NCBI GenBank assembly: GCA_008080745.1 | Contig: SHMX01000004.1 | Coordinates: 180,001-212,000 of the forward strand | DNA: 32,000 nt | Direction of reading: 5' to 3' | Source of the DNA: Candidatus Thorarchaeota archaeon | GTDB lineage: Archaea > Asgardarchaeota > Thorarchaeia > Thorarchaeales > Thorarchaeaceae | Part shown: positions 9,171 through 18,644 of the stretch, piece after piece | Position numbering within the stretch: position 1 is the stretch's first letter | Layout: each line of letters opens with the position of its first letter | Notes under the pieces: generated by a model | Databases searched by the model: none | Seen by the model: only the letters and a program-made list of their open reading frames with translations | What the model was told of the DNA's origin: nothing | Made by a program: the position numbers and the translations under genes

Positions 9171-11405
9171 TTGTTTCTGAGATTCAGATGTATTCCATTG
9201 AGTAATGAAATTGAGGACCTTGCGAAATCTGTTTTGCTTGATATAGGACATTCCATTCAAGATACTTTAGTAGAAAATAGACGTGTGAATAGAACTGTAT
9301 CTGAAGCGGTACGAATTGCCTCTTTGATTTACTCTCTTAGTATGTTTCAAAATAGAGACGCATTAGAGTTAGTGAAATCGAAAAGAATGCCGTTTTTATC
9401 CCTGTCATATCCTGCACAACAAAATGGCATATCTATTGACCAAGTGGTTTCGTTGGTTAGAGATCTATTAGACCAAGATATTAGAGTTTACAATACTATC
9501 TCGGAACTCACAACTCTTCAATATATTGAGCTTCTCCATCGGATTCATTCCTTAGGAGTATTCAATCCTATCATGCTTCGTAAGACAAAAACTCAACGAA
9601 AAACTGGGTCTGTCTATACTCCTTATTCCTTAGCAAAACACATTGTGAAATTAACAATCAATCCTCTTGTTAAAAAGTATTCCTCACCAAGTTCTATACC
9701 TGATTTTCTCTCAATTCGAATACTAGATCCTGCTTGTGGGCCTGGTATGTTCCTCGTTGCCTTGTACTTAGAATTCTGCACTCATATTAAGCATGTATTA
9801 TCGGAATCCCTTGCCACTCATGAAAAACTGGATTCTTCTCAATTAGTTGAGATTAAAGGAGGAATTGCAAGAAATCTATTTGGAGTTGATTTAGACAAGG
9901 CATCTTTGGAAATTGCAGATGTCGCTCTTAGTTTATTATCTGATGTAGATTTGATGGAAGAATCAGCATTTCTTGATAAGACTTTGAAACAGGGTAATTC
10001 TCTTATATCTATCAGTGGACTTGATGGCGGCCAGGATTACAGCAGTTTCTTTTCTGACCCATTAGCTCGATTACCTTTTGAATGGAGATCAGAATATACA
10101 ACCTGTTTTCAAAGAGGAGATTTCGGATTTGATTGTATTGTGATGAATCCCCCTTACAATAGACTAAAACCAAACCTCGCTGAATTTCTACGAGAAAAAT
10201 TGGTAATAGGTGAACGCGAGATACAGATGAGCTCTTTTGATGCATTCAAATCACAGCTTGCTGAGGATGTTGGTTACTTTCGAAATTCTGGAGAGTATCA
10301 ACTTGCTAACAAATACACTCTCGATACTTATCGTTTGTTCGTTGAGCGGGCTATTCAACTCTTAAGACCCTCAGGATATATGGGCTTCATAGTTCCATCA
10401 ACCCTTCTAGGAGATCTTTCTGCTAAGATGCTTCGAAAATACATCTTCTCTCATACCGATGTTGATACAATTGAGATATACGTAGAACAAGCTGGATTAT
10501 TCGAGCAAGTTACTCAATCCGTTTGTATTCTCACCACTCAACTTGGTAGTCCAAGTCAGAATATTACTCTAAAATTTGATGGAACTGAACTGGGTAAATT
10601 TTCTTCTCAAAAATTCATAAAACTATCCACAGAAGAGATTCGACAGGTTTCAGGCTCTTCAATGGTCGTTCCTCAGGTTACGCGGGATGGTTTAGGAATC
10701 CTAAAAAAGATACATAGACATCCCTCCTTGGGTCAACTTAGATGGGTGGAAATTTTTAGAGGTGAACTCGATCTTACAAATAATTCTTCATTCATTCAAG
10801 ATCATCAAAATGATACTCCTCTCATTCGTGGAGCTAACATCGATCGTTTTAGAATCGATTTAGATTCTATTGAACACTCAGTTAATTTCGAATTTTTTTC
10901 CGAATGGTTGAAGGGTTCTCGTAGACATCCCCATCTTCAACAACAAAGGATAGCCTGTCAACAAATATCAAATAGGGCTCAGAGATGGAGATTAAAATTT
11001 GCGAAGATTTCACCCAATTCCATCTTAGCTAATTCATGCAATTATATTGCAGTATCAAATTATAATCCGTCTGACTATCTTGATTACTTGCTAGGGTTAC
11101 TCAACTCCAGTCTTCTAAACTGGAGATTCGCCTTATCAAATACCAATAATCATGTGTCAAATAGAGAATTGGCTGCTCTTCCTGTTGTAAATCCCGTTAC
11201 TGCTACTGCAAATGGAACAAAGCTAATTCAACAAATAATTGACTGGGTACGAGAGCATACCTCAAATAGAATCGATACAGTTCCTCTTGATATCTTAGTA
11301 TTCCGTTTGTTCGGACTTGATCCAAATGAAGCCAAAGTAATATTGACTCGACAAAATGCAGGAAAGAGTGAGATGTCTGAGATTATTAGTAGCTTAATTT
11401 TGTAG
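9171..11405 (+). CDS. N6-adenine DNA methyltransferase, gamma class, resembling the Alw26I/Eco31I/Esp3I (M1.BsaI-like) family
   Basis: GSVYTP, ILDPACGPGMFL and IVMNPPY in gamma order, plus a TaqI-like C-terminal region (PLIRGANIDRF). The segment FIVPSTLLGD...LRKYIF...AGLFEQVTQ resembles this family as I recall it. Confidence 0.85.
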   Translation: MFLRFRCIPLSNEIEDLAKSVLLDIGHSIQDTLVENRRVNRTVSEAVRIASLIYSLSMFQNRDALELVKSKRMPFLSLSYPAQQNGISIDQVVSLVRDLLDQDIRVYNTISELTTLQYIELLHRIHSLGVFNPIMLRKTKTQRKTGSVYTPYSLAKHIVKLTINPLVKKYSSPSSIPDFLSIRILDPACGPGMFLVALYLEFCTHIKHVLSESLATHEKLDSSQLVEIKGGIARNLFGVDLDKASLEIADVALSLLSDVDLMEESAFLDKTLKQGNSLISISGLDGGQDYSSFFSDPLARLPFEWRSEYTTCFQRGDFGFDCIVMNPPYNRLKPNLAEFLREKLVIGEREIQMSSFDAFKSQLAEDVGYFRNSGEYQLANKYTLDTYRLFVERAIQLLRPSGYMGFIVPSTLLGDLSAKMLRKYIFSHTDVDTIEIYVEQAGLFEQVTQSVCILTTQLGSPSQNITLKFDGTELGKFSSQKFIKLSTEEIRQVSGSSMVVPQVTRDGLGILKKIHRHPSLGQLRWVEIFRGELDLTNNSSFIQDHQNDTPLIRGANIDRFRIDLDSIEHSVNFEFFSEWLKGSRRHPHLQQQRIACQQISNRAQRWRLKFAKISPNSILANSCNYIAVSNYNPSDYLDYLLGLLNSSLLNWRFALSNTNNHVSNRELAALPVVNPVTATANGTKLIQQIIDWVREHTSNRIDTVPLDILVFRLFGLDPNEAKVILTRQNAGKSEMSEIISSLIL

Positions 11406-11450
11406 TTTATTTCTTGTACATTAGAGTAATCTTTTCATAGTCTAAATCAG

Positions 11451-12692
11451 ATGTGTTTTCTGAATGGTATGGTCCTTGTTCAAGCAGAGATGGTGAGTTC
11501 ACAGAAGGAGAAGAATTCACTATTTAATCATGTGAGTGCAACACTCAGTCAGTTAGATATGGAGATGATACAATCTGTTCCACAGGGGGGAAACTGGCAA
11601 GATATACCCTCTCACATAGTGGAAAAATCCGCCCGATTGATGCAAATTCGAGAATCTGGTGGAAGAACCACATACTACGGCCGTTTGCATCCTGATTACC
11701 CGAGTTATACAATTAGTACCTACTTCAATAGACCAGGGAATGGTACCTTTATTCATCCCGATCAAGATCGACTCATATCTTTACGCGAAGGAGCGAGACT
11801 ACAATCCTTCCCTGATGATTATCGCTTTTTAGGAAGCCAAACTTCGATGTACAAACAGATCGGGAACGCAGTACCTCCACTATTAGCAAGGTCTATTGCT
11901 GAGAGTATACCTGTTGGTCTTGCCGTAGACCTTTTTGCTGGTGCGGGTGGTCTCTCTCTTGGTTTGGTCCAATCAGGACATAGACCTATTGTTGCTGCAG
12001 ATAATAATCGTAACATGTGCCTTACTTATTCATATAATCACCCTGATACAATGACATCTCTCTCTAATCTCCAAAATACAGAAGATTTTGAAAATTTATG
12101 CAACTTGATTGATAATACCCTTCATGGAAGAACATTACAGCTAGTTGCAGGAGGTCCACCTTGTCAGGGTTTCTCTACCGCTGGAAAATGGGATAGCAGA
12201 GACTCAAGAAATTCACTAGTGGTACCAATGCTGAAGGTGATTCAAAGATTCCAACCAGAATTTGTTTTGATTGAAAATGTTCTTGGACTCAAGTGGATGG
12301 AAAAGGGAGCAATCCTTCAGAGAATAATCTCTATCCTTGATTCAATGGAATATTCTACTCAATGGTACACATTCAAGGCAGAAGCATATGGTGTACCACA
12401 GAGACGAAGAAGAATTTTCATCATAGGGTCCCGATCTGGTGACTACGACGCGCCCACTCCTTTTTTTGCTTCGGTAAAACGAACCAGAAATCGTGACATC
12501 ATCCAATATTCATCGAATCAACTTCCATTACCAATCTCTGTTCGAGAAGCGATATTCGACCTGCCTGAGATAGAATCAGGGAATATCTCACATATACAAT
12601 CATATAATGGTGAAAGCGTTTTATCAAATTACCAGAAATACATGCGTGATGAGATATCTTACGAAGAATTTCTCAAATCAGTACAATCCTGA
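11451..12692 (+). CDS. Circularly permuted C5-cytosine DNA methyltransferase (M2.BsaI/M2.Eco31I-like)
   Basis: Motifs IX (LREGARLQSFPDDY) and X (YKQIGNAVPP) come before motif I (DLFAGAGG), IV (GGPPCQGFS), VI (ENV) and VIII (GVPQRRRRIF). Confidence 0.93.
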   Translation: MCFLNGMVLVQAEMVSSQKEKNSLFNHVSATLSQLDMEMIQSVPQGGNWQDIPSHIVEKSARLMQIRESGGRTTYYGRLHPDYPSYTISTYFNRPGNGTFIHPDQDRLISLREGARLQSFPDDYRFLGSQTSMYKQIGNAVPPLLARSIAESIPVGLAVDLFAGAGGLSLGLVQSGHRPIVAADNNRNMCLTYSYNHPDTMTSLSNLQNTEDFENLCNLIDNTLHGRTLQLVAGGPPCQGFSTAGKWDSRDSRNSLVVPMLKVIQRFQPEFVLIENVLGLKWMEKGAILQRIISILDSMEYSTQWYTFKAEAYGVPQRRRRIFIIGSRSGDYDAPTPFFASVKRTRNRDIIQYSSNQLPLPISVREAIFDLPEIESGNISHIQSYNGESVLSNYQKYMRDEISYEEFLKSVQS

Positions 12693-12763: not shown

Positions 12764-14449
12764 TTGATAGTTCATGCGGCTTTAATCGACCTACTAAGTG
12801 GCAAAGTAATGTCACAGTTGGATTTCACAAAGGGAAACCTAAGATCGGCACAGGTTGATATGGCTGTAGATAGTTATTTTGCATTCTTACAGGCAGGACT
12901 TGAAGATACATGTAGTACAGCTGAAATTGGGAGCAATGCTGTTTTACTCTGCAAAGTGAATGATATCACTCTCTTGGCTTGTTTTAGTGATGATAAAAAA
13001 ATAGATGACGACCAACTAGAATCTGCGAAAATACTCAGTTCTCAAGTCAAAGAACGAATTGGTGAAAAATCTGCAAGAAAGGTTAGAGGTATATTTCCTT
13101 CTTTAGCACGTGAGCAGTTTCAGAAAGCGGTATCAATTTTCTTCGTATCACACCATTATCCTGAGATTGATAATAAATCTGGACAAGCGGTACAGAAACT
13201 ACTGAATAGCAAACACTCATCCAATGAATCCTATTCTGTAAATGTGGGTCCATTTTCAATTTCATACAAACACGGTATTCCATCGGAGATTACGGGGTAT
13301 GATTCTAAATCACTGGAAGATATCGATGTTCTTGTATTTATTATATCTAATCCAATTTGGCCTGAATCAATATTTGACAGCGTTATCAGGAGATTTCGTG
13401 AGCATCCTGATATTCCGATACTTGTGGTTCCGGGATCTGATGATTATCTAGAAATTACCCGAAAATATGAAGAAAAATACGAAGTCATATTGTGCGATTC
13501 TGTTTCAGATGACCCGCATCGACTACTTGTATCGGTATTAGCATACAGTGGACTATCATTTGAACAACCAGAAATAGCAATGCAGAAATGGAGAATGGAC
13601 TCTATCGAAGCTTCTTCTGATGAACATTTACGGGAGAAAGAGGAGTTACTAGGACATCAAGCATTTTTTGTAATCGACAAACAAACAGGAAGACCAGTTT
13701 ACACTTATTTTTATGACCAACAATCTGTACTGCTTGATAGAATTCCCAATGTTGTGGCAGCTATTTCAGCTTTATCAATGGATCCTGATAGTAGCACGAA
13801 AACATCCGTTGTGCGAACTGGAAACTTGAATTATGCAATTATTGAGCGGAATGATTTGATATTTACATTGATTACTGGTCTAAAAGAAGATGCAGATGCT
13901 ATACGTTCTCAGTTCGCATTCCTACCTGATCTCTATTTTGACGAAGCACCTGATGATGTTATCAAACATGAGAATCCATATTCTGCTCCTCCCTTCACCT
14001 TGAAACTTCTAGCTACACTGCCTCCTGAACCCTTACCTGGGCGACTTATTCCGCAGCATAAGAATGAACCAGAATGGGAGAAATTCAAAGAGGAATCAGT
14101 CAGAGACTTCATTCAAGCCATTTGGCATACAATTGATGGAGATCGACCTATTTCCAGAATGGCTGTGGGTGATGGACCTCTCTTAGTGATAGGTGCTCTT
14201 CATCTCCTTAAATCACTAGGTGCTATAAACATGAAAATTGACGTGAGGTTGGAAGACATACCTGTATTGCAGACTACAGATCCTTCACATGTCAAATTAC
14301 CTTACACTGGGATCGAGTCGGTTCTGGATTATGTCAATGGAGATAATACATTGGGTGATATTTGCAATCACACGAATATAGAAATAGAGGTACTGAGAAC
14401 AGTCTTTGGGATGCTCTATAATCGTGGAGTTATTGATTTTCTGGAGTAG
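12764..14449 (+). CDS. Longin-like / degenerate GTPase-fold / longin-like / tandem winged-helix protein
   Basis: Segment-by-segment similarity to the next gene. Second longin-like region FFVIDKQTGRPVYTYFY...NVVAAISAL...IIERNDLIFTLIT. Two C-terminal repeats IDGDRPI and VNGDNTL...LYNRGVIDF. Confidence 0.75.
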   Translation: MIVHAALIDLLSGKVMSQLDFTKGNLRSAQVDMAVDSYFAFLQAGLEDTCSTAEIGSNAVLLCKVNDITLLACFSDDKKIDDDQLESAKILSSQVKERIGEKSARKVRGIFPSLAREQFQKAVSIFFVSHHYPEIDNKSGQAVQKLLNSKHSSNESYSVNVGPFSISYKHGIPSEITGYDSKSLEDIDVLVFIISNPIWPESIFDSVIRRFREHPDIPILVVPGSDDYLEITRKYEEKYEVILCDSVSDDPHRLLVSVLAYSGLSFEQPEIAMQKWRMDSIEASSDEHLREKEELLGHQAFFVIDKQTGRPVYTYFYDQQSVLLDRIPNVVAAISALSMDPDSSTKTSVVRTGNLNYAIIERNDLIFTLITGLKEDADAIRSQFAFLPDLYFDEAPDDVIKHENPYSAPPFTLKLLATLPPEPLPGRLIPQHKNEPEWEKFKEESVRDFIQAIWHTIDGDRPISRMAVGDGPLLVIGALHLLKSLGAINMKIDVRLEDIPVLQTTDPSHVKLPYTGIESVLDYVNGDNTLGDICNHTNIEIEVLRTVFGMLYNRGVIDFLE

Positions 14450-14627
14450 GGATTCATCATATGTATTACTGTTCTTCAGCTGACGATACGACACGTTGTA
14501 TCTATGAATCTCCTTTAGTCCAAGTACATGATAGATACCTTATTCTATTGTTATTACCAGATGAACACATCCAAAATGCAATAAGTATTAGCCAGAATCT
14601 TAAACTGTTACAGGAGTTCGTATTTGT

Positions 14628-16505
14628 TTGATTCATAATGTTCTACTGGTCAATAAAGTCGATGGTGAAGTAGTCACTAAAACAAGATTTTGGCGTATAG
14701 ATTTCACTGAATCTGATATTCAAGACTTTATTGTAGGCTATCGTGATGTGCGTAATACCCAAGGACTAGCAGAAGATACTCCTGTTTTTGTGGGCCCCCA
14801 CAAGATCTTTCATGGTGACGTAGACGATGATATGATTCTGATGTTTGTTACTGATGGTCGTGATGAGGATCGTACTATCAAGTCCAAAGTTCGTGAAGGG
14901 GCGGCAAAGATATCTACATCTCTTCGAGGAAACTCAATCGGTTATATTCGGGACAATCTCGAAGATATCCTTGGAGACCTAATCTTTACTCGATTCAAGG
15001 TTTCCTTCGTAGGCAGTGGTGGTGTGGGAAAGAGTACGTTACTTCGCCTTCTCTTCGGCAAAGAACCAGCTCCTGGTGGTTACACTCCTACTATCAATGT
15101 TGCTGTAGATAGCAGCGAAACAGTGCAATTTGGCACATTTCTAATTACGATCTGGGACTTCGCAGGGCAGGCTGTTTTCCAAGATCTTTGGGAGTTTTAC
15201 TTTTCAGGAACAGATGTCATCTTCCTCATCTGTGATAGCAGTTTTAGGAATGTCATGCAGACAAAGACACTCTTGAGAAATATTAGAAAAGAGGCTCCAG
15301 GCGTACCATTGTATATCATTGCAAACAAACAGGACCTTCCCGAGTCAATGAAAGCAGACAAAATTCAAAGATTGCTTGGCGCTTCAACTTTTCCAATGAT
15401 TGCAGTAAATAAAGAACGTAGAAATGAATTCATTCGTTTCATGCTAGAGGTTGCTGCAAACACCATTGGTGTTGAGCTTCCAGACCGTCCCATATCTGAG
15501 ATGATTACTGTTAGAAGAGAAACCGAACCTGAACAGGCCGCTCCAGGGACCGATGCTGCAGAATCTGTCGATTCTTCTGAAACAGGAGATATAGAAGAAA
15601 CTCATGCAGTTGAGAGTGATACTGAGGTAGTATCTGGCCCCCCAACAAAAATCCTGCAGTTATTGTTCATAGTTCAGAATCAAAACATGTATGAGATTTC
15701 GCTTCATCTGAACTACACACAAGAAGATGTAGATCCAAGTTCAATAACTTCGCTCATCAATGCCCTTGATATGTTCAAGGGGATGGGTGATGAGGGGGCA
15801 GATCCATCGAAACAGACTGATTCTCTAAAGACTATTGAACATGACGGAAAGGTTGGCAATCATACATGGGTTGAGAAGACCGACCATTTCATTCTCGCAG
15901 CAATTGTTAACAATACACGTGATGAAGATCAAATCCGGGTCATCATGAAGTCGATTCTAGATGAGGCTGAGGACAGATACAAAACAGAATTACGTGGTTT
16001 GAATCCCTCAGAACCCATCGATATCTCCATGTTCGAACCCTTGATTTTTGACATTCTTGATTTGTATCCCCTGCGCAAACTGGGACTTAATTACCTTGTC
16101 AGAGCTAGAGAGGCTGGTAGACCTCTTCCATTTGATAATAGAACGGTGGGTCACGCAGTTGTCACAGTTAAAGCTGCAATCGATGGTACATCCACGGTCG
16201 GAAGTCTTGTCAGGGCTTTAGACTTGACGCGTGACAAAGTCTTCGGAGCTTTGCAGATTATGGAAAAGTATGGTTGGGTCGACTTCAAGGTCGATATCGG
16301 ACCTGATACTGTTCTTCTTAAAGTTCGAGAACCTGATCCTGAGATTGGAAAGATATACGGTGAAGTTATGCTTAATCTCATTGACCGGTGTGATGGAAAG
16401 ACACCTCTCAAGGATATTGTAAAAGCATTGAAGATCTCGTTACCACCAGTTATCTTTGTTGTGACTAAACTGGTGCTAGATAGTGTGCTTGAAGTAGTTG
16501 CATGA
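14628..16505 (+). CDS. Longin-like / small GTPase (Arf/Rag-like) / acidic linker / longin-like / tandem winged-helix protein
   Basis: G1 GSGGVGKST, G2 YTPT, G3 WDFAGQ, G4 NKQD. The N-terminal (VLLVNKVDG...ILMFVTD) and internal (ITSLINAL...ILAAIVN) segments are longin-like. Two C-terminal repeats IDGTSTV...MEKYGWVDF and CDGKTPL...LVLDSVLEV. Confidence 0.85.
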   Translation: MIHNVLLVNKVDGEVVTKTRFWRIDFTESDIQDFIVGYRDVRNTQGLAEDTPVFVGPHKIFHGDVDDDMILMFVTDGRDEDRTIKSKVREGAAKISTSLRGNSIGYIRDNLEDILGDLIFTRFKVSFVGSGGVGKSTLLRLLFGKEPAPGGYTPTINVAVDSSETVQFGTFLITIWDFAGQAVFQDLWEFYFSGTDVIFLICDSSFRNVMQTKTLLRNIRKEAPGVPLYIIANKQDLPESMKADKIQRLLGASTFPMIAVNKERRNEFIRFMLEVAANTIGVELPDRPISEMITVRRETEPEQAAPGTDAAESVDSSETGDIEETHAVESDTEVVSGPPTKILQLLFIVQNQNMYEISLHLNYTQEDVDPSSITSLINALDMFKGMGDEGADPSKQTDSLKTIEHDGKVGNHTWVEKTDHFILAAIVNNTRDEDQIRVIMKSILDEAEDRYKTELRGLNPSEPIDISMFEPLIFDILDLYPLRKLGLNYLVRAREAGRPLPFDNRTVGHAVVTVKAAIDGTSTVGSLVRALDLTRDKVFGALQIMEKYGWVDFKVDIGPDTVLLKVREPDPEIGKIYGEVMLNLIDRCDGKTPLKDIVKALKISLPPVIFVVTKLVLDSVLEVVA

Positions 16506-18644
16506 TTACTTAACAGGAATTACTATTCTTTCTCGGTAATCTGGGATCTTGATTCCTTTAGGTGTATCTTCATATGGCGTGTGTACCATGATTCTTTTTC
16601 CGGAACAAGATTGAATGTATTCTTCCAAATTTGATGCAGATGTATGAGCGCTCAATCGTGCATATTCAACTCTGCACTCATGTGGTTCATGGCCATTTAT
16701 GAGATTCCAACCTGGAGTTCTTGGAGCTAAATATCCGCACATAATTATTGCAGCATTTGGATTATCACGGTGTTCATTGAAATGGTGCCTAGCTAGACCA
16801 CCAGACATCATTCCACCCCCAGCGACAAGAATATCGTCTTTTTCAAGGTAGACCTTGTTCTTTTTCATACTCTGCCACTTACCATGATACCCTGTAAGCT
16901 TGGTAATCTTCTCAGCTAATCCTGCAACCATTACATTCCTAGTTTCTGTGATTCCTGTATTATCCAACAGCATCAACATCTCTTGTGTTCTTCCAACAGC
17001 AAAACTTGGGATAACTACTGGTCCATGTTCATCAACTATATCTGTTACTTGACGAGCGACAGCATCTCTACTAAAATCTTCTCTGCCCCAATACGTTCCA
17101 TCAAAAATCACAGCATCACAATCTGTAGGAAGGTTTGCTCCTTCAAATAAAACTGATTTATCCAGGTTGAAATCCCCCGTATATAGTATCTTTACTCCTT
17201 CTATATCTAGAAGGTAAGCAGCGCTCCCTGGAATATGGCATGCATCAATTGGTGTTGCCAAAATCCCTGGACCTACCTCCTGGGTCTTTCCATATTCTAG
17301 GATAATGTGATTATTAAATACTCTATCAATATTCTTCTGAGTAAAGCGTGAAACTAAATCATATTTGTCATATTTTCTTGGAGGGAGCGGAGTTCCGATG
17401 TGCATAGCATCTTCTAGTAGAGCTTTTCCAATTCCTCCAGTTATTCCTACAGAACACCATTTTCCTGAAAAGCTATCGTAGAGGATAGGTAGACCGCCAA
17501 GATGATCGAGATGTGAATGGCTGATGAGCACTGTATCAATCATCTCTAACTCTGGAGTCCATTCTGGAATTCTTTGATTTGCCACGGAAAGACCATAATC
17601 CAGAAGGATTCCCCCTGTATCAGTCTTAATTAGAATTCCACTTCTTCCAATATGTGGACCACCCAAAAAGATGATTTCTATGGTTTTTGTAGTAGTTGAA
17701 TACGCCACAGCGGGAAGTAAATCCTTCCTCATTTTTTCAGGTATCAACTCAAAAATAACAGGATCAATAGCTTCTGGAGCGGGTGGTGAAGGTAGTTCTT
17801 GTAATCTAATTGGCAGGTCAAATTCACCATTAGTAAAGCCCTCCTCTCTGAAACAATTTTGAACGCTGGTATAAGCTGAATCTACAGACATCTCAGAATT
17901 GATATTTTTCTGTCCTTTATGATATGCTGTTTTCCTAATTGATCTGAATGATTTAGCCATCATTCCATCCGGAAGCCAATCATTCGATTCCTCAATGATT
18001 TCTCTTAGGGATTTGTCTTGTATTGCCTCTTCGAGATACTGAGGATGTCTCACTACAGAATCAACAAATCGCATACCATCTGTATTGACACTCTCGTCAA
18101 TGCTTTCTCCAAATTCCTCAATAATTTCTGCAAATTCTCTATGATTCCAAAGAGGGCATCCAAGAAATCTGATCCATTCTCTAACAGTCTGAAGAAAATC
18201 TCTTCCGTGAGCATCCTTGGTTAATGCTATGACGACAAGGGCCCTCTTCAACCACTCTTCTATCTTTTTTGAATCACGGATATTGTACAATGAGTATCTA
18301 TATGCATAACGAAATTCTTCATCTGAATAATTATCAAATAAGAAATTGTAAAGGAGCAGGGTCATAGCATCTATGTAATCTTCTGTATTGATTTTCAGTA
18401 ATGCATCTCTCAAAACACCATCCAATATTTTGTATACATTTTGAGCAGTTTCAAGCATCTCCAATTCAATATCTGAGTCTCTTAATACAGCCCAAACTAT
18501 CAATTCTGGACTTTCACCGAATAACCCCTTCTGGCCCGAAATTGGTGTTCCTTTAACAGCTTTCTTTGCATCTTCAAGTCCTTGTTTGAAAAACTCTAAA
18601 ACAATCTTGTTCTTTGTTTCAGGAACATCGGTATCGATTTTCAA
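16506..18644 (-). CDS. Metallo-beta-lactamase beta-CASP ribonuclease (CPSF73/aCPSF-like) with ~290 aa unrecognised N-terminal domain
   Basis: LLDYG, HSHLDH, CHIPGS, YTGD, DGTY, PSFAVGRTQE, SAHT and VHT motifs lie in the C-terminal ~420 aa. Confidence 0.88.
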   Translation of the reverse strand: MKIDTDVPETKNKIVLEFFKQGLEDAKKAVKGTPISGQKGLFGESPELIVWAVLRDSDIELEMLETAQNVYKILDGVLRDALLKINTEDYIDAMTLLLYNFLFDNYSDEEFRYAYRYSLYNIRDSKKIEEWLKRALVVIALTKDAHGRDFLQTVREWIRFLGCPLWNHREFAEIIEEFGESIDESVNTDGMRFVDSVVRHPQYLEEAIQDKSLREIIEESNDWLPDGMMAKSFRSIRKTAYHKGQKNINSEMSVDSAYTSVQNCFREEGFTNGEFDLPIRLQELPSPPAPEAIDPVIFELIPEKMRKDLLPAVAYSTTTKTIEIIFLGGPHIGRSGILIKTDTGGILLDYGLSVANQRIPEWTPELEMIDTVLISHSHLDHLGGLPILYDSFSGKWCSVGITGGIGKALLEDAMHIGTPLPPRKYDKYDLVSRFTQKNIDRVFNNHIILEYGKTQEVGPGILATPIDACHIPGSAAYLLDIEGVKILYTGDFNLDKSVLFEGANLPTDCDAVIFDGTYWGREDFSRDAVARQVTDIVDEHGPVVIPSFAVGRTQEMLMLLDNTGITETRNVMVAGLAEKITKLTGYHGKWQSMKKNKVYLEKDDILVAGGGMMSGGLARHHFNEHRDNPNAAIIMCGYLAPRTPGWNLINGHEPHECRVEYARLSAHTSASNLEEYIQSCSGKRIMVHTPYEDTPKGIKIPDYRERIVIPVK

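Follow-up and report, generated by a model that had tools for sequence, protein, structure and literature searches.

Two adjacent and similar genes in a Thorarchaeota genome, one apparently encoding a small GTPase and the other a degenerate version of it, pose the question of how they are related and whether their products work together. They lie in a window of 32,000 nucleotides (nt) from a Candidatus Thorarchaeota archaeon (assembly GCA_008080745.1, contig SHMX01000004.1, positions 180,001 to 212,000 of the forward strand; genome of 3.16 Mb, 98% complete), to which all coordinates below refer unless another locus is named. Gene A (561 residues) and gene B (625 residues) are open reading frames (ORFs) on the + strand, adjacent and 178 nt apart, as the original prediction, made from the letters of the window alone, had described them. 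That prediction held that they are tandem paralogues, with an inactive G domain in the first and an active one in the second, each sandwiched between longin domains, and that their products form a self-contained heterodimeric unit. We find that A and B are full-length, ancient paralogues with one four-part architecture. A is well supported as a pseudoGTPase, and a heterodimer with B is the reading towards which we lean.

Both genes start at TTG, each preceded by GGAG 8-11 nt upstream, and the first residue of their homologues coincides with these starts (MIxxA.. for A, MIHNV.. for B). Because orthologues share the start residue and the GGAG is found at this distance, we take the TTG starts to be right. 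Relatives of both proteins are many, and nearly all carry the Thorarchaeota label. Those of A (n = 189, 35-61% identity) are all named hypothetical, and those of B (about 58-62% identity) are annotated as Arf-like GTP-binding proteins. The features are as follows, with the supporting evidence in brackets; domain boundaries draw on AlphaFold2 (AF2) models and their predicted local distance difference test (pLDDT) scores.

12764..14449, + strand: gene A, predicted pseudoGTPase paralogue with longin, dead G fold, longin and two winged helices (ORF, relatives, AF2)
12764..13123, + strand: A N-terminal longin, residues 1-120 (VIA-align)
13124..13603, + strand: A predicted pseudoG domain, residues 121-280, strands ordered as in small GTPases, beta2-beta3 hairpin present (AF2, VIA-align)
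13148..13186, + strand: A loop at the G1 position, residues 129-141, 5 residues longer, without GxxxxGK[ST] and without Lys (alignment)
13271..13285, + strand: A HGIPS, residues 170-174, opposite B's DFAGQ at G3 (hhalign register)
13433..13444, + strand: A GSDD, residues 224-227, opposite B's NKQD at G4 (hhalign register)
13646..14023, + strand: A second longin and linker motif PPFTLKLLATLPPE, residues 295-420 (AF2 strand-helix order)
14045..14446, + strand: A two winged helices, residues 428-561 (AF2, hhalign to B)
14450..14627, + strand: A-B spacer, 178 nt, with GGAG ahead of B's TTG
14628..16505, + strand: gene B, longin, Arf/Rag-like GTPase, acidic linker, longin and two winged helices (ORF, profiles, AF2)
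14628..14987, + strand: B N-terminal longin, residues 1-120 (VIA-align)
14988..15482, + strand: B small GTPase domain, residues 121-285 (Pfam, TIGR00231, PDB profile)
15012..15038, + strand: B G1 P-loop GSGGVGKST, residues 129-137 (invariant in 37 aligned orthologues)
15156..15170, + strand: B G3/switch II DFAGQ, residues 177-181, catalytic Gln position kept (invariant in 37 orthologues)
15324..15335, + strand: B G4 NKQD, residues 233-236 (invariant in 37 orthologues)
15504..15638, + strand: B acidic disordered linker of variable length, residues 293-337 (pLDDT 24-43, 32% identity)
15639..16073, + strand: B second longin, residues 338-482 (pLDDT 80-90 outside one loop)
16095..16502, + strand: B two winged helices, residues 490-625 (pLDDT 85-92)

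Nucleotide motifs and folds of A and B

The G domain of B matches the Pfam family Arf (E 1.8e-18, 67.1 bits for a cut-off of 22.3), and also Roc and Ras. Its score for Gtr1_RagA (24.8 bits, cut-off 22) is far under that for Arf, and A does not match this profile. TIGR00231 is matched at 64.6 bits (cut-off 42.5), and the nearest solved relatives by sequence are Arf1 (E 1.6e-14, profile against PDB) and Arf6. We searched the relatives with the patterns GxxxxGK[ST] for G1, D..G[QHE] for G3 (a loose pattern) and [NT]KxD for G4. They occur in 119, 120 and 120 of 120 relatives of B, and in 0, 9 and 1 of 120 relatives of A; the nine G3 matches in the latter look like chance matches to the loose pattern. 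Since neither the nucleotide motifs nor the Gln of switch II varies, B should be a working molecular switch, and its sequence is that of an intact Arf/Rag-like GTPase, so that the second gene has the active type originally proposed for it. The identity of 92% kept by its G domain across genera points to an important cellular role in Thorarchaeota.

The first gene, also as proposed, has lost G1, G3 and G4 while keeping the strand order of the fold in the AF2 model. The four motif pairs quoted in the original prediction are present in the translations, and hhalign puts them opposite each other. At the G3 position, HGIPS is not conserved among the A family. At the G4 position, GSDD lies inside a family-conserved motif, VVPGSDxxLExAR, of which P223, L229, E230 and R233 are invariant and S225 and D226 at least 90% conserved, and the G5 position carries the nearly invariant motif LCDSVSxxP. 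Pfam and NCBIfam contain no known ligand motif matching this middle domain.

Secondary-structure elements follow one another in identical order in the AF2 models of A (mean pLDDT 81) and B (mean pLDDT 70, the G domain being of low confidence). In VIA-align comparisons, the N-terminal domains match the delta-COP longin 5mu7_B, with Z 12.7 and a root-mean-square deviation (rmsd) of 2.5 over 112 residues for A, and Z 13.9 and rmsd 2.3 over 113 residues for B; the VAMP7 longin (Z 12.5 for A) and adaptin sigma/mu longins are also among the matches. The second domain has the longin-type order in both proteins (strand, strand, helix, three strands, helix). The proposed longin-G-longin sandwich was thus right as far as it went, but two C-terminal winged helices had been missed. 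Residues 118-283 of A, whose fold the original prediction had wished to see checked, match nucleotide-free Ran (2n1b_A, Z 10.2 over 150 residues), Rab28 (Z 10.1) and DiRas1 (Z 9.9), and the G domain of B matches DiRas1 (Z 11.7 over 156 residues) and LokiRagO (8yl2_A, Z 11.5). The nearest named cluster to the middle domain of A in the ESM Atlas is Rab-like, with a template modelling (TM) score of 0.67, against 0.57 for response regulators; a feature search of the Atlas with A 119-285 gave no usable match. Asgard longin-GTPase fusions superpose on residues 1-377 and 16-443 of A. For both full models the top Foldseek match in the PDB is RagA (6ces_A, 321 columns for A and 332 for B), and the matched span covers the G domain and the domain after it.

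Pfam Fuz_longin_1 is matched below threshold in 9 of 45 A members (best E 2.8e-4), and the winged helices have weak matches to HTH_47 in 10 of 45 and to DUF742 in 6 of 45. A search of PDB sequences with the A-family profile returned nothing significant, the best being a designed Rossmann protein (E 0.09) and NPRL2 (E 0.32). Taken with the missing motifs, the modelled fold gives good support to A as a pseudoGTPase that has kept the G fold without G1, G3 and G4.

Paralogy, distribution and selection

The alignment of the A family to the B family by hhalign is collinear from end to end (Prob 97.9, E 3.9e-13, 547 columns), as the claim of collinear paralogy required. We then split the two family alignments by domain and compared every A domain with every B domain (16 pairs). 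Three of the cognate pairs gave E 2e-5 for the N-terminal longins, E 1.3e-12 for the winged helices and E 2.1e-4 for the G/pseudoG pair (Prob 46%, 84 columns), and every non-cognate A-B pair had E of at least 0.019. BLASTP between the C-terminal halves of A and B gave E 0.002. A HMMER profile of the A family, run against 1.84 billion representative proteins, returned 48 matches, among them about 25 full-length A clusters. The full-length members have E below 1e-135, and next in the list come stand-alone tails and B-type GTPases; positions 13-230 of the profile align to residues 4-226 (longin and G domain) of a B-type GTPase with E 4.1e-7. In the same search, no A-like protein with live G motifs was found.

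To place the two families in the phylum, we scanned 301 of its genomes: 76 from the window's own GTDB family, 1 from the sister family and 224 from outside the order. A single copy of A was found in 67 of the 76 family members; no genome among the 224 from outside the order has it, and the sister-family genome gives only a partial match to a stand-alone longin/winged-helix protein. Orthologues of B are found in 69 of the 76, in the sister-family genome (1/1) and in 0 of the 224 elsewhere. Because B is also present in the sister family, where A was not found, B is the older of the two and able to exist without A. On this distribution, A appears as an addition, specific to one Thorarchaeota GTDB family, onto the older GTPase B. 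We inferred a maximum likelihood tree of the longin and winged-helix halves from every third sequence of A1 and A2, the B of sister-family genome G112, and two stand-alone paralogues as outgroup. The stem of A measures 6.4 substitutions per site, and the branching of A, B of the family and B of the sister family is not resolved; because of this long stem, the tree is silent on whether A arose after the split of the families or the sister family once had it and lost it.

The linkage of the two genes extends to relatives. In about 58 genomes of 16 genera, A is the gene immediately before B, in the same orientation and 95-180 nt away; in the other family genomes contig ends cut the locus, except in genus g12 (see below). 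We rejected G242 as a case of B without A inside the family, as a scaffold gap of 100 N (L007 5003-5102, G242:C1) abuts the N-terminus of its B, although this genome is listed as a single contig. As further cases of that kind, G290 and G296 are ambiguous because of contig ends.

We measured conservation as mean pairwise identity within each family. The N-terminal longin is the least conserved part of A (33%; 74% in B, where it has many invariant charged residues), followed by the pseudoG domain (41%, against 92% for the G domain of B). The second longin is the best conserved part of A (63% in both families), and the linker motif after it is also highly conserved (62%). The winged helices, the best-conserved part common to the two families, have 55% (first) and 46% (second) in A and 71% and 74% in B. 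A is under selection: its reading frame is intact in 67 genomes, and 52 columns of its alignment do not vary. It evolves two to three times faster than B, yet purifying selection persists and is strongest in the second longin and the adjoining linker. When B of the A-containing family is compared with B of the sister family, which lacks A, the G domain is 80% identical, the second longin 18-20% and the first winged helix about 30%. This fits a reshaping of the second longin of B when A was gained or lost.

The family genomes hold further paralogues. B2 is a second longin-GTPase (529 residues, G000:C1:343154-344743; L006 3154-4743, - strand) that aligns with B over the longin and GTPase half only (38% identity, hhalign E 5.7e-65); its 230 C-terminal residues differ from those of B, and a copy is present in nearly every family genome, with no A-like neighbour. 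Stand-alone tails made of a longin and a double winged helix are encoded in tandem in the genome of the window (279 and 287 residues, G000:C3; L003 500-1339 and 1456-2319, - strand), and a third lies elsewhere (G000:C7, L005). One stand-alone paralogue has weak matches to HTH_47 and HTH_NPRL3 (E 0.003, 17.9 bits for a cut-off of 27.2), and a 291-residue Thorarchaeota cluster superposes on A 295-561 with a TM score of 0.60. These tails, once more arranged in tandem, probably correspond to the Thor family that Liu et al. report as 'NPRL2-like'.

Do A and B act as one unit?

We lean, with no great assurance, towards a Rag-like pseudo-symmetric heterodimer. On the model of the Rag/Gtr GTPases and NPRL2-NPRL3, the longin and winged-helix domains of A would bind their counterparts in B. 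Only B would cycle between GTP and GDP, and A would be its non-catalytic scaffold or regulatory half, possibly acting on the GTPase cycle of B. The presumed history is one of a self-pairing ancestor, a duplication, and the change to an active/dead heterodimer. Paralogous pairs such as Gtr1-Gtr2, NPRL2-NPRL3 and Mon1-Ccz1 are heterodimers. A has stayed intact, single-copy and beside B across 16 genera despite divergence to about 37% identity, and its best-conserved parts (second longin, linker, winged helices) are those that it has in common with B. That the domain best kept in A is the most divergent in B between lineages fits a pairing through the second longin and the winged helices. The same genome offers a precedent for paired modules in the tandem genes of the stand-alone longin and winged-helix paralogues. 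A complex prediction for A 295-561 with B 338-625, made from their own alignments, had an ipSAE of 0.00 with controls not run, and speaks neither for nor against binding.

Several observations weigh against the heterodimer. The second longins, its presumed interface, are in register but not significantly similar (hhalign E 0.11), and CheY-like receivers tie with small GTPases as structural matches of the A middle domain (Z 9.9). When every protein of the window was searched by tblastn in 13 loci, which come from many genera, the whole block proved to be collinear in genomes with A and B, in the order of two methyltransferases, A, B, then a convergent beta-CASP gene, NAD kinase and nadA; the adjacency is not specific to A and B. 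Tandem duplicates are, in addition, adjacent by origin. Because the block is collinear and tandem duplicates start as neighbours, the synteny of A and B is weak evidence of coupling. In four genomes of genus g12, an ORF of 526 residues on the opposite strand and without Pfam match parts A from B (L008 2732-4312, - strand; L009 5053-6633, + strand), and one of them also has an Acyl_transf_3 (acyltransferase) gene in between. Because of this opposite-strand gene, co-transcription of A and B is not required. In the sister family, B is followed by the same beta-CASP, NAD kinase and nadA genes but not preceded by A. This is so in G112 (96% complete), in another two assemblies and in two Logan contigs, which were found via P0281; A was not found elsewhere in the genome, and the sequence upstream of B is contiguous, without runs of N. 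Nor does it count as independent evidence that six genomes (G116, G124, G173, G218, G230, G263) lack both A and B, an argument for coupling that we rejected, because one gap or deletion removes both adjacent genes. The original interpretation thus stands for the paralogy, the live and dead G domains, the flanking longins and the adjacency, but its 'self-contained unit' is weakened by the collinear block, the g12 insert and the B genes without A.

These points feed the strongest rival, according to which A and B no longer cooperate, each self-associating or having its own partners, and are neighbours by history; we regard it as possible but rather unlikely. Besides the collinearity of at least five flanking genes, the opposite-strand gene in g12 and B without A in the sister family, two further findings agree with it. 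According to its PDB title, the Asgard Rag-like GTPase LokiRagO (8yl2) is a homotetramer, and B2 offers nearly every family genome a second longin-GTPase, for which, or for another of the many small GTPases that the genome encodes, A could be a platform. Against it stand the long retention of A as an intact single copy at the side of B, its pattern of conservation and the heterodimeric habit of comparable pairs, all cited above for the heterodimer.

A second rival, which we consider improbable, is that the middle domain of A is a rebuilt pocket (PGSD..LE..R, CDSVS) that binds a new ligand or partner, making A a sensor subunit with or without B. The near-invariant residues P223, S225, D226, L229, E230, R233, D245, S248 and P251 cluster at the G4/G5 positions of B, and CheY-like receivers are found, with further Rossmann-like ligand binders, among the structural neighbours of the domain (Z 9.3-9.9). 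Yet, at 41% identity, few parts of A are less conserved than this domain, the profile libraries named above gave it no ligand motif, and the PGSD/CDSVS patch could equally be a protein interface. A rebuilt pocket of this kind is compatible with the heterodimer. The last rival, that the G-likeness of the region is convergent or due to chance in a generic three-layer alpha/beta domain between longins, can point to the modest score of the G/pseudoG pair taken alone and to Z values tied with flavodoxin-like folds, but is very hard to believe given that the match, inside an end-to-end collinear alignment, is to the cognate domain alone, that HMMER aligns longin and G domain as one stretch, that the beta2-beta3 hairpin typical of Ras is present in A, and that the GTPase matches cover 142-150 residues compared with 120-121 for the receivers.

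The surroundings of the pair have features of their own. The methyltransferase genes upstream of A (9171-12692, + strand) are of m6A type and of C5-cytosine type (Pfam DNA_methylase in one relative). Their order and strand are kept in 10 of the 13 loci, from many genera (L011-L020), at 32-56% identity; this suggests vertical, perhaps housekeeping inheritance, such conservation being unusual for a restriction-modification remnant. The convergent gene downstream of B (16506-18644, - strand) encodes a metallo-beta-lactamase/beta-CASP protein of 712 residues with an N-terminal extension of about 330 residues, and is the neighbour of B in both families. Upstream of B, the sister family has a gene combining CUB, PPC and caspase (Peptidase_C14) domains (L023 2838-4340, L024 3741-5570), an unusual combination for an archaeon. 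A small ORF of 178-184 residues after B in that family is unrelated to A. Within the A-B spacer, most relatives carry the motif AAAG[GC]TTCATAGA, 10-40 nt past the A stop and about 80-110 nt before B; the variant in the window is GGATTCATCATATG (14453-14466). The motif may serve B as a promoter or regulatory site. A look for sequencing runs listed two DNA runs from marine sediment, probably of the source sample, and none of RNA.

Comparison with known systems

The Rag/Gtr GTPases share with A and B a Ras-like G domain followed by a roadblock/longin-type domain, and the presence of two paralogous chains; RagA, Gtr1 and Gtr2 are the top Foldseek matches of A and B, over about 300-330 columns. 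Rags pair through the C-terminal roadblock-type domain, and both Rag subunits bind GTP. A and B differ from them in several respects. The domain after the G domain has longin and not roadblock topology, A is devoid of all nucleotide motifs, so that the pair is not one of two nucleotide-binding subunits, and both proteins have an additional N-terminal longin and two C-terminal winged helices. The G domain of B is, moreover, closer by sequence to Arf, Gtr1_RagA not being its best profile.

Similar combinations have been described in other Asgard archaea. The passages of Tran et al. 2024 (PMC10933270) on MK-D1 place its Rag-like GTPases 'between a longin and a roadblock domain' and report a Rag-like operon pair predicted to heterodimerise via roadblock domains. 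The corresponding parts of the preprint of Liu et al. 2020 (10.1101/2020.10.19.343400) count longin-Rag fusions among the Asgard signature proteins and report that most Thor genomes have an NPRL2-like family. The Asgard Rag/Arf-like fusions of these passages are active GTPases, mentioned there with neither a dead twin nor an NPRL2-like winged-helix tail. Compared with the Asgard longin/roadblock GTPases, the A-B pair has a narrow range, a single Thorarchaeota family, and B does not extend beyond one order.

With NPRL2-NPRL3 of GATOR1/SEACIT, A and B have in common a longin followed by winged helices, and Foldseek matches A to GATOR1 and SEA-complex entries with E 3.5e-6 to 1e-4 (at the level of entries and not of named subunits). 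NPRL2 and NPRL3 are paralogues whose heterodimer acts on a Rag GTPase. In A and B, unlike in these proteins, this module and a GTPase or pseudoGTPase form one chain, and the support from sequence is below threshold (NPRL2 E 0.32), with HTH_NPRL3 matched only in a stand-alone paralogue. Because of this sub-threshold support, the link of the A and B tails to NPRL2/3 is one of resemblance and not of membership. The longin domain of GATOR1 type carries a catalytic arginine finger/GP motif (PMC12290439), and a 2025 Traffic paper ties Asgard longins to longins of GTPase-activating proteins by the GP motif. No GP motif was seen by eye in the beta1-beta2 loops of the four longins in our alignments, and an arginine finger was not identified.

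Other systems are further away. In Mon1, Ccz1, Fuzzy and HPS1 three longins are consecutive, whereas the two of A and B are split by the G fold; the Fuz_longin_1 score is 14.4 bits for a cut-off of 26.1, and the structural match to Fuzzy has an rmsd of about 25 A. The eukaryotic pseudoGTPases CENP-M, AAGAB and the pseudoG domains of p190RhoGAP have a G fold without nucleotide motifs that serves as a scaffold or interaction module, and show no homology to A beyond the fold. In the literature searched, we found no paper on an archaeal pseudoGTPase and, as the original prediction had supposed, no published description of the present pair. The signal recognition particle (SRP) receptor, MglA-MglB and CvnB-CvnC-CvnD resemble it in that a small GTPase has a longin/roadblock partner. 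SR alpha (SRX longin and GTPase, 6frk_y) matches A 2-257 with Z 10.1, and DUF742, weakly matched by A members, is the CvnC family; these matches are weak, none reaches a curated threshold, and they are leads only.

Overall, the closest analogy is a Rag-like G domain with its C-terminal dimerisation domain, to which an NPRL2/3-like tail of longin and winged helices is attached within one chain, a union of interest in itself; Mon1-Ccz1 and FLCN-FNIP fit less well. Eukaryotic membrane traffic and nutrient signalling depend centrally on small GTPases with longin/roadblock regulators, and it is in Asgard archaea that these parts first appear together. Here a dead G domain is kept under selection in a prokaryote, and the lineages with B alone and with A and B provide a natural contrast in which the presumed passage from homodimer to active/dead heterodimer can be tested. 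At its most speculative, and we would give it little credence as yet, the pair could be a compact archaeal counterpart of Rag-GATOR1. A Rag-type switch and an NPRL2/3-type regulator would be fused in each chain, a homodimer would have become an active/dead heterodimer by duplication, and the PGSD/CDSVS pocket of A would sense a metabolite or partner and gate B. If so, A would be a prokaryotic regulatory pseudoGTPase, and the pair a living model for the origin of asymmetric Rag-like dimers.

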